Source: Escherichia phage FL23
Reading direction: 5' to 3' (one strand)
Sequence record: PP400787
DNA: 64,000 nt
Made by a program: the position numbers and the translations under genes. Below, piece after piece: positions 58,306 through 63,257 of this stretch. Below the pieces are notes generated by a model. That model worked only from the letters and a program-made list of their open reading frames with translations, made no database searches and had not been told where the DNA came from. The stretch's first letter is position 1. Every line of letters starts with the position of its first letter.

Positions 58306-59002
<697 letters not shown>

Positions 59003-59014
59003 TTTCACAAAGTT

Positions 59015-59054
59015 GTTTACATACTGATGAGGTAGTGATACTATTACCTCATCA
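59015..59054 (+). promoter_or_regulatory. early promoter with stem-loop (PeSL-like), ip locus copy 1
   Basis: -35 GTTTAC (59015-59020); extended -10 TGaTACTAT in the loop of perfect 10-bp inverted repeat TGATGAGGTA (59025-59034) / TACCTCATCA (59045-59054). Confidence 0.6.
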
Positions 59055-59075
59055 AAATTAATTAGGAAAATAAAA

Positions 59076-59333
59076 ATGAAAACTTTCAAAGAGTTTGCTA
59101 CAAAAACTACTATCACTGAATCTTCCCACGGTATGGAAGTAAAGCTTGGAATGGCTTTAGCTGAAGCTGAGCGTCTTTTCTCTCGTATTAAAGAACTTGC
59201 TGCTGCGGTCGATCCTTCATCTTTTAAAGGAGACCAAACTAAAGTTAAAGCACTTTTAGCATTATGCTCCGATGCAGGAGAAATTGCTAAAAATGGCTCT
59301 AAGATGAAGAAACGATTAGAAGATTTAAAATAA
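59076..59333 (+). CDS. internal head protein with N-terminal capsid-targeting sequence (ip-locus gene)
   Basis: N-terminus MKTFKEFATKTTITE resembles the T4 internal-protein CTS (MKTYQEFIAE) with a candidate gp21 cleavage site I-T-E; own early promoter; AGGAAA SD. Confidence 0.7.
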   Translation: MKTFKEFATKTTITESSHGMEVKLGMALAEAERLFSRIKELAAAVDPSSFKGDQTKVKALLALCSDAGEIAKNGSKMKKRLEDLK

Positions 59334-59345
59334 TTTCACAAAGTT

Positions 59346-59383
59346 GTTTACATAGGGTTTTAGTTGTGATACTATTACCCTAT
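59346..59383 (+). promoter_or_regulatory. early promoter with stem-loop (PeSL-like), ip locus copy 2
   Basis: -35 GTTTAC (59346-59351); same GTGATACTAT -10 core; flanked by imperfect inverted repeat ATAGGGT/ACCCTAT. Confidence 0.55.
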
Positions 59384-59409
59384 CAAAACAAAACCAAATG
59401 GAAATCAAA

Positions 59410-59643
59410 ATGAAAACTTACCAAGAATTTATTGCTGAAACTGCTGATGTAAAAGTTGAGTTTATTTACACTGGCAAGAAAGATAAAATGGGTGAAATGC
59501 CTCATGGAGTTCTTCGTGATGCATTAGATAATTTCGGTCAACTCGCCGCAGAAGATTACGGTGATAAAATTGTTGTTACTGGTCCTGCTGCAGTTATTGA
59601 AAAATGGGCAGCAGAAAATAAATCAATTTTTCGTAAAAAATAA
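59410..59643 (+). CDS. internal head protein with canonical CTS (ip-locus gene)
   Basis: Begins exactly MKTYQEFIAE at the second in-frame ATG (track start 59398 adds MEIK); own early promoter. Confidence 0.7.
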   Translation: MKTYQEFIAETADVKVEFIYTGKKDKMGEMPHGVLRDALDNFGQLAAEDYGDKIVVTGPAAVIEKWAAENKSIFRKK

Positions 59644-59683
59644 GTTTACTTTTAGATAGGGTAGTGATACTATTACCCTATCT
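59644..59683 (+). promoter_or_regulatory. early promoter with stem-loop (PeSL-like), ip locus copy 3
   Basis: -35 GTTTAC (59644-59649); GTGATACTAT in the loop of perfect 10-bp inverted repeat AGATAGGGTA (59654-59663) / TACCCTATCT (59674-59683). Confidence 0.6.
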
Positions 59684-59701
59684 ACTACTGAGGAGAATAA
59701 A

Positions 59702-59887
59702 ATGAAACGTTGTGAATTAATTCGAAATGTTGCTATTGCAATTTCTGCTTCCGCTTTTAGTTTTTCAATGTTTGTTGGATTTATATGTGGATTATTGACT
59801 ACAGCAGAAAATGTGTTTTCACTTGTAGTAGCATTTTTAATTGGTTTAATTGCTATTGTTATGGATAAAATTTCTAAAGGTGAATAA
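59702..59887 (+). CDS. small hydrophobic membrane protein (61 aa)
   Basis: GAGGAGAATAAAATG strong SD; two predicted hydrophobic segments; own early promoter. Confidence 0.6.
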   Translation: MKRCELIRNVAIAISASAFSFSMFVGFICGLLTTAENVFSLVVAFLIGLIAIVMDKISKGE

Positions 59888-60285
59888 TGAACGTTGAATA
59901 TTATGTATATGCGGATTACGAAAATAATCCGTCTAAAGATGAAGATAATCGTTTAGGTGTAGATGCTTTCGATTCCCCTGCGGCGGCATGGCAATGGGTT
60001 GAAAGAACCGATATTCCTTACCGTTATATTGAAGTGGTTGACCACGCAGGAAACAAGTATCCTAAGGAAGCATATGTTGCTTCCGGGAAGGTAAATTTCC
60101 TTTTGTTTGCAGGTGATAATTATTATCCCCGTGGTGGGTATACCGATTTAATTGCTAAAGCATTCTCTGAAGATGAACTCCGTGACATTATCAAAGAAAA
60201 TGAAAACAAACCGATGGATTCTAATCGCTTTGATTGGTGGCAAATCGTAAATGCTAATACTCACACTATTGTTGATGAAGGCTGA
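59887..60285 (+). CDS. hypothetical protein
   Basis: TAATG coupling; 132 aa. Confidence 0.65.
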   Translation: MNVEYYVYADYENNPSKDEDNRLGVDAFDSPAAAWQWVERTDIPYRYIEVVDHAGNKYPKEAYVASGKVNFLLFAGDNYYPRGGYTDLIAKAFSEDELRDIIKENENKPMDSNRFDWWQIVNANTHTIVDEG

Positions 60286-60287
60286 TA

Positions 60288-60575
60288 ATGATTCTTTATG
60301 CGAAAGTATCATCCATTGAAAATGGATATAAATATGATCAAGACGCGGCTAAAGCTTTGATTGATGATTATGGCATTTTAACATGTTTTGAAGTTGAAAA
60401 GGTTTACATTGACCGTTCATCTTCTCAAGTTAAATTAGTGAAGGAAGAACGTAAATTTAATACAGTAAATTTTGATTTCTTTATTGAAACAGAAAAAGGT
60501 CCTCTTGAATATGATATTTTCAAGAATCCTTTGGGTCTTGAATGCATCGTAAATATGTATTATTATAAATGGTAA
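60288..60575 (+). CDS. hypothetical protein
   Basis: ATG 2 nt after previous stop; 95 aa; followed by middle-promoter cassette. Confidence 0.65.
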   Translation: MILYAKVSSIENGYKYDQDAAKALIDDYGILTCFEVEKVYIDRSSSQVKLVKEERKFNTVNFDFFIETEKGPLEYDIFKNPLGLECIVNMYYYKW

Positions 60576-60578
60576 ATA

Positions 60579-60603
60579 TGCTTTAAGAATTATTTGTTAT
60601 TAT
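60579..60603 (+). promoter_or_regulatory. MotA-dependent middle promoter upstream of the tRNA cluster (second copy of the gene 31 cassette)
   Basis: 22-nt string ATGCTTTAAGAATTATTTGTTA (60578-60599) identical to 1838-1859; MotA box TGCTTTA, 12-nt spacer, -10 TATTAT. Confidence 0.5.
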
Positions 60604-60672
60604 TAACTCATATCGCACTGATTAATACCCTCTATCATCAAGGGTTCTTGCTTAAGAGCCTTTGTTAATAAT

Positions 60673-60745
60673 TGGGAATTAGCCAAGTTGGTAAGGCACT
60701 GGATTTTGATTCCAGGATGCAAAGGTTCGAGTCCTTTATTCCCAG
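60673..60745 (+). tRNA. tRNA-Gln (anticodon UUG)
   Basis: Cloverleaf: acceptor TGGGAAT/ATTCCCA, anticodon loop TTTTGAT, T-arm GGTTCGAGTCC; CCA not encoded. Confidence 0.85.
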
Positions 60746-60746
60746 C

Positions 60747-60833
60747 GCGAGAATGGCCAAATTGGTAAAGGCACAGCACTTAAAATGCTGCGGAATGATT
60801 TCCTTGTGGGTTCGAGTCCCACTTCTCGTACCA
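60747..60833 (+). tRNA. tRNA-Leu (anticodon UAA), long variable arm
   Basis: Acceptor GCGAGAA/TTCTCGT, anticodon loop CTTAAAA, T-arm GGTTCGAGTCC, encoded CCA. Confidence 0.85.
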
Positions 60834-60839
60834 AAGTTT

Positions 60840-60911
<72 letters not shown>

Positions 60912-60923
60912 AAATTTAATTTA

Positions 60924-60997
60924 CTCCGTGTAGCTCAGTTTGGTAGAGCGCCTGATTTGGGATCAGGAGGTCCAAGGTTCAAATCCTTGTATGGAGA
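60924..60997 (+). tRNA. tRNA-Pro (anticodon UGG)
   Basis: D-arm TAGCTCAGTTTGGTAGAGC, anticodon loop TTTGGGA, T-arm GGTTCAAATCC. Confidence 0.8.
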
Positions 60998-60999
60998 TT

Positions 61000-61086
61000 G
61001 GAGGCGTGGCAGAGTGGTTTAATGCACCGGTCTTGAAAACCGGCAGTCGCTCCGGCGACTCATAGGTTCAAATCCTATCGCCTCCG
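61000..61086 (+). tRNA. tRNA-Ser (anticodon UGA), long variable arm
   Basis: Acceptor GGAGGCG/CGCCTCC, anticodon loop CTTGAAA, T-arm GGTTCAAATCC. Confidence 0.85.
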
Positions 61087-61093
61087 TAATTTC

Positions 61094-61166
61094 GCTGATT
61101 TAGCTCAGTAGGTAGAGCACCTCACTTGTAATGAGGACGTCGGCGGTTCGATTCCGTCAATCAGCA
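61094..61166 (+). tRNA. tRNA-Thr (anticodon UGU)
   Basis: Acceptor GCTGATT/AATCAGC, D-arm TAGCTCAGTAGGTAGAGC, anticodon loop CTTGTAA, T-arm GGTTCGATTCC. Confidence 0.85.
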
Positions 61167-61172
61167 TATCAA

Positions 61173-61244
61173 GGCCCTGTAGCTGGAAGGTTCAAGCAAG
61201 CGACTCATAATCGCCAGATGGTGGTTCAATTCCACCCAGGGCCA
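61173..61244 (+). tRNA. tRNA-Ile (anticodon CAU, presumed lysidine-modified; reads as Met by sequence alone)
   Basis: Acceptor GGCCCTG/CAGGGCC, anticodon loop CTCATAA, T-arm GGTTCAATTCC; T4 encodes a CAU tRNA-Ile at this position. Confidence 0.7.
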
Positions 61245-61285
61245 TATTTTGAGAACATAAATACTCTTAGAAATAGGAGATATTT

Positions 61286-61951
61286 ATGTTCCATTACATT
61301 TATAAAATAACAAATAAAATTAATAATAAAATCTATATAGGCGCTCATTCTACCGAAAATTTAGATGATGGATATATGGGTTCTGGTAAATTATTAAAAA
61401 GAGCCCAAGATAAGTATGGTATAGAAAATTTTTCTAAAGAAATATTAGAGTTCTTTGACGATAAAACCTCTATGTTTGAGTCAGAAAAGAATATTGTGAC
61501 TGAAGAGTTTTTAAAGCACCCTGATGTTTATAATTTGAAATTAGGTGGTGAAGGTGGTTGGGACCATTTAAACACTAAAGAATATTTGGATAAAAAGAAA
61601 GAAGCTTCCTTAAAAGGAGCTGCCGCTTTTAAAACCAGATTTGAGAACGACCCAGACCTTAAAGAAAAATATCGTAAAATGGGTTCAGAAAGGTTTAAAC
61701 AGCTTTGGGATAATCCTAAGTATAGAGAGAAATTTTTAAATACTAAATCTTTCTTGGGTAAGACCCATACTCCTGAAACTATTAATAAAATGAAAGAATC
61801 TCACGCTAAAAATAATCACCAGAAAGGTGAAAAGAATTCCCAATTTGGTATGATGTGGATTCATTCATTAGATGAAAAAGTTTCTAAACGTATTAAGAAA
61901 ACTGACCCAATTCCAGAAGGATGGTTTAAAGGTCGAAAAATGAAATTTTAA
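61286..61951 (+). CDS. segB: GIY-YIG homing endonuclease SegB
   Basis: N-terminal GIY-YIG module (KIYIGAHS...YMGSGK); 221 aa; inserted between tRNA-Ile and tRNA-Arg as in T4; AGGAGA SD. Confidence 0.85.
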   Translation: MFHYIYKITNKINNKIYIGAHSTENLDDGYMGSGKLLKRAQDKYGIENFSKEILEFFDDKTSMFESEKNIVTEEFLKHPDVYNLKLGGEGGWDHLNTKEYLDKKKEASLKGAAAFKTRFENDPDLKEKYRKMGSERFKQLWDNPKYREKFLNTKSFLGKTHTPETINKMKESHAKNNHQKGEKNSQFGMMWIHSLDEKVSKRIKKTDPIPEGWFKGRKMKF

Positions 61952-62035: not shown

Positions 62036-62376
62036 GAAGCCGGGTCGCTACCGGCAAGTCGTCGGACTGATGTTCCCTGTTTAAGGACTGGCATTAACAA
62101 ATCTTTACGATCTGCTAATGCCCCCTTATATCACAGCAGAAACGGCGCACCGAATTATCGATTCGAGGAAATATCTTTGCCATAAGCCGAGTAGCGTTTT
62201 TGACGGAACGTTCGGATATGGTCGAGATATGGCCTTTTAAAAATATTGAGTAGCGTCAACTGCTTAATAACCGGGTTCGAATCCCGGCGTTTCGTACAAA
62301 CACTTGCCTTAGCAGGTGGAACCCCGACAAGGTTGCCGCAAGGCTTAGCCCCGACCGAAAGGTTGGGGCTTTTTAG
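62036..62376 (+). ncRNA. small stable RNA region (T4 RNA C / RNA D-like), boundaries approximate
   Basis: No credible ATG ORF with SD; lies directly downstream of tRNA-Arg where T4 encodes two small stable RNAs; contains a tRNA-like T-arm (CCGGGTTCGAATCCCGG at about 62271-62287) and ends in a hairpin plus T-run terminator. Confidence 0.4.
62347..62376 (+). terminator. rho-independent terminator ending the stable RNA region
   Basis: CCCCGACC-GAAA-GGTTGGGG hairpin followed by CTTTTT. Confidence 0.65.
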
Positions 62377-62464
62377 TTTGAATCACTCGGATAACGCTGT
62401 TACGGATAGTAACAAAGTAATAAATAATTAATAACCAACCGATAAATTATTTCAAGGATTTTAA

Positions 62465-63028
62465 ATGAAAACCTATGCCGAATTTTTAACCGAAGCAGCA
62501 AAATTACCATCTGAAGCAGATCTTACTAAAGTATTCTTCCAATTGGACCCAAAAGACCGCGGCGATTTTCTTAAGTGGAAAGCTAAAGCTATTGAAATGT
62601 ACAACATCGATAATAGTTCTTTTACAATGAGTCAAGAAAATAAATTCAATAAAGCATTTTTCAAAATTTCTAAGAAATTGGCATCTGGCGCTCAGGTTCC
62701 TAAATCTGTGTTAGCTACTCCTGAACGCGCACCTGTTAAAATTTCTAAGAATATGTTCGACACTAAAAAATACGTTAATGCTTTGAATAAAGCTCTTGAT
62801 GCATTGGATGATGCAAAGAAGGCAGCCCGCGATCTTCAAGACGTGTACACCGATTTTGACCGCAAAACTAAAGGTTCTATTTCAAATAGCGAACGCAATA
62901 GTGTAAGTGTTTATTCTGATAGCCTTGATGTTCTTGGCGATGCGTATACTGAAATTAAAAATCGTATTAACACTGCATCTAAGCTAAAAGCTGCTGCAGA
63001 AGCTATAATAAGTAAACTAGGTAAATAA
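62465..63028 (+). CDS. internal head protein with CTS (IpIII-like)
   Basis: N-terminus MKTYAEFLTE matches the CTS consensus with L-T-E cleavage site; 187 aa; AAGGA SD; terminator follows. Confidence 0.7.
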   Translation: MKTYAEFLTEAAKLPSEADLTKVFFQLDPKDRGDFLKWKAKAIEMYNIDNSSFTMSQENKFNKAFFKISKKLASGAQVPKSVLATPERAPVKISKNMFDTKKYVNALNKALDALDDAKKAARDLQDVYTDFDRKTKGSISNSERNSVSVYSDSLDVLGDAYTEIKNRINTASKLKAAAEAIISKLGK

Positions 63029-63061: not shown

Positions 63062-63184
63062 GGTATCTAGGCCTTTCTGGACCTCTCTAGGCATCATTTA
63101 GTTTATACCCTTTATAATATATTATCCTATCCTTTAATTGCCCATCCCTGCCCTAGAATTCCCTAAAAATTTTTTCACAAAACT

Positions 63185-63214
63185 GTTTACATCTCTGTTC
63201 TTCCATGGTACTAT
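63185..63214 (+). promoter_or_regulatory. early promoter
   Basis: -35 GTTTAC (63185-63190), 18-nt spacer, extended -10 TGgTACTAT (63206-63214). Confidence 0.55.
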
Positions 63215-63257
63215 ACAACTATCAACTACTGATACAGAAAACAACTTGGAGAATGAA

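Follow-up and report, generated by a model that had tools for sequence, protein, structure and literature searches.

The early operon trna.4-trna.3-trna.2 of Escherichia phage FL23: three conserved genes, dispensable in T4, between counter-defense genes and the tRNA cluster

What is the role of three small genes that lie in the best-studied region of the best-studied phage and that, four decades after sequencing, are still functionless on paper? We addressed this question in Escherichia phage FL23 (sequence record PP400787), in a stretch of 64,000 nucleotides (hereafter the window) for which a preliminary description had placed, with exact coordinates, three uncharacterized early genes between the internal protein (ip) genes and the tRNA cluster; the RNAs of their T4 counterparts are indeed early. 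The three plus-strand open reading frames (ORFs), at 59702-59887 (61 aa), 59887-60285 (132 aa), and 60288-60575 (95 aa), are the T4-type early operon trna.4-trna.3-trna.2. The T4 genes have long been catalogued and hence are not new, and a specialist will find the assignment ordinary, save for two leads on Trna.2 and the domain pattern of Trna.3, described below, which are testable. As to function, we lean, with a confidence that at best reaches an even balance, toward an accessory role that depends on conditions, most likely in counter-defense or host range and exerted through binding.

The window is from a Tequatrovirus. Over 59000-61300 it matches Escherichia phage FL44 at 100% identity, and the corresponding values for many other T4-like phages are 97-99%. 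The gene order agrees with both the T4 and the FL44 annotation, and relative to 57B, the ip locus, and tRNA-Gln the strand and the spacing of the ORFs are also those of T4. By position in the T4 reference, the ORFs are orthologues of trna.4, trna.3, and trna.2 (NP_049748, NP_049747, and NP_049746), and the comparison with these T4 genes, which had been proposed as a check, gave amino acid identities of 100%, 64%, and 94%, respectively, by direct alignment. Each protein matches a family profile over its full length: PHROG 1692 for trna.4 (E = 6e-35), PHROG 1411 for trna.3 (E = 2.7e-55), and PHROG 2023 for trna.2 (E = 2.2e-47). Precomputed labels from a newer Pfam release are found on all homologues (PF26870, PF26894, and PF27001 'Phage_T4_Y07B'), with the function of each unassigned, and the original record of the T4 tRNA region, X03016, lists the same genes as ORF2, ORF3, and ORF4, 'unidentified reading frames'. 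Our scans of the three proteins against Pfam, NCBIfam, and PADLOC returned sub-threshold noise only (DUF5092, E = 0.004; TusC, E = 0.065), and profile searches of PDB sequences found nothing. The earlier remark that the two longer ORFs carry no recognizable motifs thus holds for the Pfam scan, whereas it overlooks the newer Pfam and the PHROG families, to which no function is assigned. None of the three proteins has an enzyme signature, and no sequence or fold similarity to a characterized member of the known anti-defense or defense-related families was detected; nor did the searches reveal homology to proteins of a known, unrelated function. When the literature was queried with the gene names, protein accessions, and locus tags, no functional study of the three genes came to light, and they go unmentioned in the accessory-gene screens that we examined.

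The genes are conserved in relatives and under selection. Each ORF is present in 763-803 of 50,697 phage records (trna.4 in 790, trna.2 in 803), whose host genera are Escherichia, Shigella, Yersinia, Salmonella, Klebsiella, Enterobacter, Serratia, Edwardsiella, and Erwinia. In all comparisons dN/dS ranged from 0.0 to 0.39, indicating purifying selection. Relative to T4, trna.4 has five synonymous and no non-synonymous differences (dS 0.13, dN 0), and trna.2 has a dS of 0.117 and a dN of 0.027. The gene order is equally stable. On the 5' side of the operon in the window lie the dNMP kinase gene (gene 1), 57A, 57B, and two small ip genes with an MKT(F/Y)(K/Q)EF leader, and on its 3' side lies the T4 tRNA set, with segB placed between the seventh and eighth tRNAs. 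The window has the order g1-57A-57B-[ip]-trna.4-trna.3-trna.2-tRNAs, and so do 16 of the 16 fetched loci bearing all three genes (14 of them distinct), as judged from a profile scan of the window and 38 loci in which L024, without a match to the N-terminal domain of trna.3, was counted among the 16.

Data from T4 add timing and dispensability. The RNAs of trna.4, trna.3, and trna.2 are all early in T4 omics data, and the Trna.2 and Trna.3 proteins were detected early by mass spectrometry, while the Trna.4 protein was not detected (PMC9697503 and its supplement). The T4-early-type promoter described below is seen in FL23, where early expression would be expected by analogy, early RNA having been measured in the T4 orthologues only. 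In T4, CRISPRi-ART scored all three genes as 'Not Fit' (PMC11879866 supplement), and the HIDEN-SEQ preprint supplement (transposon saturation) gives all three as non-essential (0.92, 0.975, and 0.94); in one comparison there, trna.4 insertions were up by log2 2.74, which was not significant (p = 0.21, adjusted 1.0). Knock-down or transposon disruption of the T4 genes had no fitness effect in E. coli K-12. Since T4 can do without its orthologues on laboratory E. coli, an accessory, condition-specific role is the one that we infer for the three genes.

Among the three proteins, Trna.3 is the one that departs most from T4. The trna.3 orthologue (59887-60285, plus strand), identified by identity, PHROG match, and AlphaFold modeling, encodes an acidic soluble protein of 132 aa (136 aa in T4); the other soluble protein, Trna.2, is likewise acidic, the pI values of the two being 4.4 and 4.8. 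Residues YYP-GGY and WWQ of Trna.3 are invariant. Trna.3 consists of a variable N-terminal domain (approximately residues 1-66) and a conserved C-terminal domain (approximately residues 67-132), with majority fractions of 0.59 and 0.84 and dN/dS values relative to T4 of 0.39 and 0.12, respectively. Its AlphaFold model (pLDDT 85, pTM 0.49) fits two small alpha/beta domains whose predicted relative orientation is uncertain, and nothing similar was found in the PDB. An internal duplication was considered and dropped, as hhalign aligned the N and C domains with an E value of only 0.45. Relative to T4, trna.3 has a dS of 1.13 and a dN of 0.275, the dS being about ten times that of its neighbors (0.12-0.13). 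Its N domain is near that of the IMG/VR locus L019 (dS 0.57, dN 0.019), and the dN/dS between the two trna.3 genes is 0.03, whereas trna.4 and trna.2 of L019 are far more diverged from those in the window (dN 0.25 and 0.42). The high dS together with an L019-like N domain amid diverged L019 flanks points to an allelic replacement inside the operon, and the sequence comparison shows trna.3 of FL23 to be a swapped allele relative to T4. The G+C content of trna.3 is 39%, compared with about 29% for trna.4 and trna.2, in line with a separate evolutionary history.

The C domain of Trna.3 is also found on its own. Predicted viral structures contain it as stand-alone proteins of 60-86 aa from Salmonella, Klebsiella, Erwinia, Staphylococcus, and uncultured phages, and a sequence search recovered it from the Brevundimonas siphovirus StAshley (35% identity, E = 3e-4). 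One example is A0A2D1GME5 of Salmonella phage Melville, which has the same domain as the Trna.3 C-terminus with 76% identity and a TM score of 0.88. The stand-alone proteins (those of Melville, Klebsiella phage Marfa, Erwinia phage Cronus, the Staphylococcus phages, and StAshley) share the small alpha/beta domain with Trna.3 and lack its variable N domain; they are uncharacterized, so they carry no functional information. Some loci depart from the FL23 arrangement at this point. Two T4-like IMG/VR loci have an extra small ORF between trna.4 and trna.3 (L012, 2434-2559; L014, 2211-2336) with a weak match to the Trna.3 C domain (E = 8e-4 and 3e-4, respectively), Klebsiella phage EI has an unassigned 61-aa ORF in the same place, and in L024 trna.3 was detected by its C domain only.

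The trna.2 orthologue (60288-60575, plus strand; identity and PHROG match) encodes the 95-aa acidic protein of family PF27001 (Phage_T4_Y07B). This family is small, with just 36 cluster representatives among 1.84 billion proteins in an exhaustive profile search, and it is marked by the motifs LYAKv..p.NGY..D...A, EV..v.IGrSST.V.L, FNSVNF.FY, and EYDIF in that order. The AlphaFold model of Trna.2 is poor (pLDDT 50), and no link to a known function was found in Pfam, PHROGs, or the PDB, including a comparison of a deeper 33-sequence alignment with the PDB. Four relatives (P0109, P0114, P0119, and P0126) have N-terminal extensions, none of which matched Pfam, and the idea of a fusion partner was dropped; the extension of P0114 looks like a translated upstream tRNA gene. 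A recent study of DRT1, a defense reverse transcriptase, found T4 Trna.2 and Inh to be the sole phage proteins enriched in pull-downs of the wild-type enzyme relative to a catalytically dead control (PMC13275509, 2026).

A second lead on Trna.2 comes from its genomic surroundings. In searches that included IMG/VR with two sub-alignments of the family, Trna.2 relatives were often found to adjoin tRNA clusters or to lie within them, in the same orientation as the tRNAs, and this also held for genomes that lack trna.3 and trna.4. In Erwinia phage Cronus the stop codon of the homologue lies 3 nt before tRNA-Lys, in the metagenomic contigs L006 and L007 the homologue overlaps tRNA-Lys, and in L008 and L025 it ends 32 nt before tRNA-Asn and 11 nt before a tRNA, respectively. 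L034 is also tRNA-adjacent, as are the Xanthomonas jumbo phage XbC2 (368 kb) and its relative L011. Relatives without a tRNA within 3 kb are those of L009, L026-L030, L032, L033, Aeromonas phage Aswh_1, and Bacillus phage BC01, among which L026 and L028-L030 are phages of roughly 145 kb. By our own rough grouping, in which the lineages are not independent of one another, about 6 of 13 lineages have a Trna.2 relative within roughly 650 nt of a tRNA. This is far above the small genomic share (a few percent) that tRNA clusters occupy, and we treat it as a lead, not a result. The L006 homologue spans 1995-2291 and its tRNA-Lys 2282-2359, an overlap of 10 nt, and in L004 the homologue at 2447-2770 is followed by tRNA-Lys at 2773. 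Where a Cronus-like homologue abuts or overlaps the next tRNA in this way, the mRNA would have its 3' end trimmed or set when the 5' end of that tRNA is processed.

The reading that we favor starts from the company the operon keeps. Its neighbor 57B is Acb1, which is needed only against CBASS, and Ip1, Ip2, and Ip3, which are internal proteins, each block one variant of GmrSD, a type IV restriction system. The three genes share with 57B/Acb1 and Ip1-3 the neighborhood, the dispensability in K-12, and a locus with allelic variation. These neighbors, the plastic region marked by promoter-early stem-loop (PeSL) cassettes, the swapped trna.3, and the lack of an enzyme signature together incline us toward an accessory, counter-defense role, and so does the enrichment of Trna.2 with active DRT1. 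The proteins would bind host proteins rather than catalyze a reaction, as 57B/Acb1 and the internal proteins do against host defenses. In contrast to Ip1-3 and Acb1, the three proteins have no capsid-targeting leader and no match to these or other characterized families; an MKTYQEFIAE-type leader, which both upstream genes carry, is absent from their N-termini (MKRCELIR, MNVEYYVY, and MILYAKVS). The question is thereby narrowed to genes that are selected, early, dispensable, and located beside proven counter-defense genes, with trna.3 exchanged as an allele. A more specific and distinctly less probable version is that Trna.2 travels with tRNA clusters as a factor acting on nucleic-acid-directed immunity, by engaging a DNA-adducted DRT1 filament or by blocking tRNA-cleaving nucleases, and that the conserved, aromatic-rich C domain of Trna.3 is a small module, widespread among phages, that inhibits a target or binds a ligand; with either, the operon would become a new counter-defense module beside acb1 and the ip genes. 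If either of the Trna.2 leads held, Trna.2 would represent a new anti-defense family, which would help to explain why small ORFs are kept inside phage tRNA clusters.

Several points speak against a counter-defense role. The proposed function is drawn from neighborhood, timing, dispensability, and allelic variation, and no defense system has been tied to these genes. For accessory genes, all three are unusually stable in position and much more broadly conserved than is typical, and the Trna.4 protein is identical to that of T4. Because the Trna.2 model is poor, a fold-level kinship with a known family may have been missed. The authors of the DRT1 study left Trna.2 unpursued, and its co-purification could be indirect (PMC13275509). 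Lastly, the probable transcriptional read-through from the operon into the tRNA genes is suggested by the absence of a terminator motif.

The tRNA linkage invites a different explanation, in which the phage tRNA set is what Trna.2, possibly together with Trna.3 and Trna.4, attends to, either in tRNA maturation or by shielding phage or host tRNAs from anticodon nucleases; within it, the acidic proteins could imitate nucleic acids and thereby block host nucleases directed at tRNA or DNA. We regard this as unlikely, though it accounts for several observations: Trna.2 relatives adjoin tRNA clusters in lineages devoid of trna.3 and trna.4 (the 6 or so of 13 noted above), the early transcript is probably common to the ORFs and the tRNAs, and the enrichment of Trna.2 with DRT1 needed the DNA-synthesizing activity of the enzyme (PMC13275509). 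However, about half of the lineages taken as independent have no tRNA within 3 kb, and common descent, the joint transfer of a module of tRNAs and ORF, or the nature of tRNA clusters as hotspots for small ORFs can account for the linkage. The acidic pI values of Trna.3 and Trna.2 speak against direct RNA binding, the tRNAs can be transcribed from the middle and late promoters independently of the ORFs, and disruption of the genes is without effect in K-12. A reading that denies the ORFs any protein function, and takes them as a transcribed leader for the tRNA genes or as remnants of PeSL shuffling, has next to no probability in our view. All three genes are dispensable and the region is prone to cassette exchange, as such a reading would have it, but dN/dS is far below 1 (compare the differences of trna.4 from T4 and the trna.3 value against L019), the frames are intact in some 800 genomes from several genera, the Trna.2 and Trna.3 proteins have been detected, and the tRNAs have middle and late promoters of their own. 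The selection and proteomic data effectively refute it.

The remaining alternative centers on Trna.4. The trna.4 orthologue (59702-59887, plus strand), assigned by identity, PHROG match, and hydropathy, encodes a 61-aa protein with two hydrophobic segments, as the preliminary description had seen; the hydropathy profile places them at approximately residues 10-32 and 38-54 (GRAVY 1.22), and the strong Shine-Dalgarno element noted at the same time is GAGGAG at 59690-59695 on the plus strand, six bases before the ATG. Conserved parts of the family are the N-terminus MKRCELIRN, a short TsEN loop, SLVVAFLIG in the second segment, and the tail VMDKISKGE, whereas the first segment varies. The positive-inside rule suggests a hairpin in the inner membrane with both ends in the cytoplasm. 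It had been argued that small early membrane proteins in this position are often superinfection-exclusion or host-takeover factors, and Trna.4, partnered by the two soluble proteins, might act as such at the inner membrane. The early transcript, the strong ribosome-binding site, the two hydrophobic segments, and the conserved, presumably cytoplasmic ends agree with this idea, and dispensability is compatible with exclusion, as a fitness screen by single infection is blind to the exclusion of a second phage. The same screens argue against a core role in takeover. The T4 exclusion genes imm and sp lie elsewhere in the genome, so the argument from position has no basis in the T4 map. Imm, like Trna.4, has two membrane segments, and both Imm and Sp are small, early, and envelope-associated; nevertheless, they show no detectable sequence relationship to Trna.4, and no exclusion phenotype has been reported for it. 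Trna.4 matched no characterized family in Pfam, PHROGs, or NCBIfam, and no exclusion-protein family was listed for it even at E values up to 1; it escaped detection in T4 proteomics; and the literature that we searched holds no toxicity or exclusion phenotype. We therefore consider an exclusion or takeover function improbable and retain the accessory, counter-defense reading for the operon as a whole.

The control region in front of trna.4 supports the view of the locus as a plastic one. A 71-nt repeat (family D1) occurs in three copies, starting at 58987, 59318, and 59616, which precede ip gene A, ip gene B, and trna.4, respectively. The third copy, at 59616-59686 on the plus strand, was identified from the repeat family, its fold, the promoter consensus, and X03016 as a PeSL cassette equivalent to T4 PE1. 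Every copy contains GTTTAC(A/T), a 17-nt spacer, and TACTAT with a preceding TG. In copy 3, the -35 element GTTTAC is at 59644-59649 and the -10 element TACTAT at 59668-59673, with TG at 59665-59666, giving an extended -10 of TGaTACTAT (59665-59673). The consensus TTTACW-N17-TAYWAT of the T4/PST pair of PeSLs (PMC4122927) is satisfied by TTTACT at 59645-59650 and TACTAT 17 nt downstream at 59668-59673. A generic sigma-70 scan missed the promoter of copy 3 (8 of 12 matches) and detected those of both sister copies.

The -10 element of copy 3 is enclosed by a hairpin with a 14-bp stem (59653-59666 paired with 59671-59684; -19.8 kcal/mol). The hairpin z scores of the three copies are -3.4 (copy 3), -4.2, and -4.7, and the stem letters vary among the copies while the pairing is preserved. 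The copy 3 hairpin has no U-tract, and a terminator scan of 58900-60800 returned no terminator-like site; at the homologous place X03016 annotates both PE1 and a stem-loop, 'pot. IpI terminator'. Because the -10 lies inside the hairpin, the transcript from this promoter would lack the 5' arm, which suggests that the hairpin acts on ip read-through RNA rather than on the trna.4 mRNA. Thus, of the promoter and stem-loop that had been ascribed to trna.4, both are present and the promoter belongs to it as PE1, whereas the stem-loop is better read as a part of the PeSL and as a terminator or stabilizer of the upstream ip transcript.

In T4, the spacer between ipI and trna.4 is a hybrid of two of these cassettes, its 5' part matching 59328-59386 in copy 2 (96.6%) and its 3' part matching 59664-59701 in copy 3 (97.4%). 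Relative to T4, the second ip gene of FL23 therefore sits exactly between two cassette copies, a placement that would be expected of PeSL-mediated shuffling. PeSLs are markers of hyperplastic regions (PMC4122927), and the FL23 copies show no notable difference from the mobile regulatory cassettes of T4-type phages (Arbiol 2010; Comeau 2014), in which a promoter is likewise fused to a stem-loop and several copies flank variable genes. The two FL23 ip genes (59076-59333, 85 aa, PHROG 3499; 59398-59643, 81 aa, PHROG 8111) stand where T4 has ipI, each with its own PeSL copy in front. According to the HIDEN-SEQ preprint, phage Bas37 likewise has two genes at the ip locus, one of which is a new McrBC inhibitor.

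Downstream of PE1, the three ORFs follow one another head to tail in close packing, and a separate ribosome-binding site serves each of them. The coupling of the 132-aa and 95-aa ORFs, which had been recognized from the start, takes the form of a stop/start overlap between trna.4 and trna.3 (TAATG, 59885-59889) and of a trna.3 stop codon located 2 nt 5' of the trna.2 ATG (TGATAATG), and an AAGGTG or GAAGG element lies upstream of each of the trna.3 and trna.2 starts. The early transcript from PE1 would cover the three ORFs and then probably run on into the tRNA cluster, as no terminator motif separates the ORFs from the tRNA genes. Inside trna.2, the sequence reads TATAAATA at 60327-60334 on the plus strand, a box that corresponds to the putative late promoter PL2 of T4; X03016 has 'pot. 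-10 region (PL2)' at the homologous position. Just behind trna.2, a pattern search found a middle promoter motif with a MotA box (TGCTTTA, 12 nt, TATTAT; 60579-60603, plus strand), which corresponds to PM2 of T4: X03016 annotates PM2 at the homologous place, and the spacer there is 95.9% identical to T4. The MotA-box pattern has 7 matches in the window against 1.27 expected. Later in infection, the middle and late promoters would be able to make the tRNAs without the ORFs. A near-exact copy of the middle-promoter sequence 60576-60604 (96.6% over 29 nt) is present at 1838-1866.

The tRNA genes that follow were delineated by ARAGORN and Rfam. Subcluster I (60673-61244, plus strand) comprises Gln, Leu, Gly, Pro, Ser, Thr, and Ile tRNAs. 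Its last member, at 61173-61244, is called 'Met (CAT)' by ARAGORN, and the homologous T4 gene is annotated as tRNA-Ile. The CAT anticodon of this tRNA-Ile is modified to read AUA. Further downstream, 62035-62151 matches T4 rnaD (85%) and 62158-62296 matches rnaC (98%), which are the small stable RNAs known as species 2 and species 1, respectively. Two ORFs that are hypothetical proteins in FL44, 62118-62240 and 62246-62431, overlap these matches, the second by its first 51 bases only, and probably do not represent genes. A 187-aa ORF (62465-63028; PHROG 2280, function unassigned) lies between rnaC and the e.8 homologue, in a place where T4 is gene-free. It starts with MKTYAEFLTEA, resembling the capsid-targeting leader of the ip genes, and may encode another injected protein; behind it, at 63173-63232, is a weak PeSL-like match.

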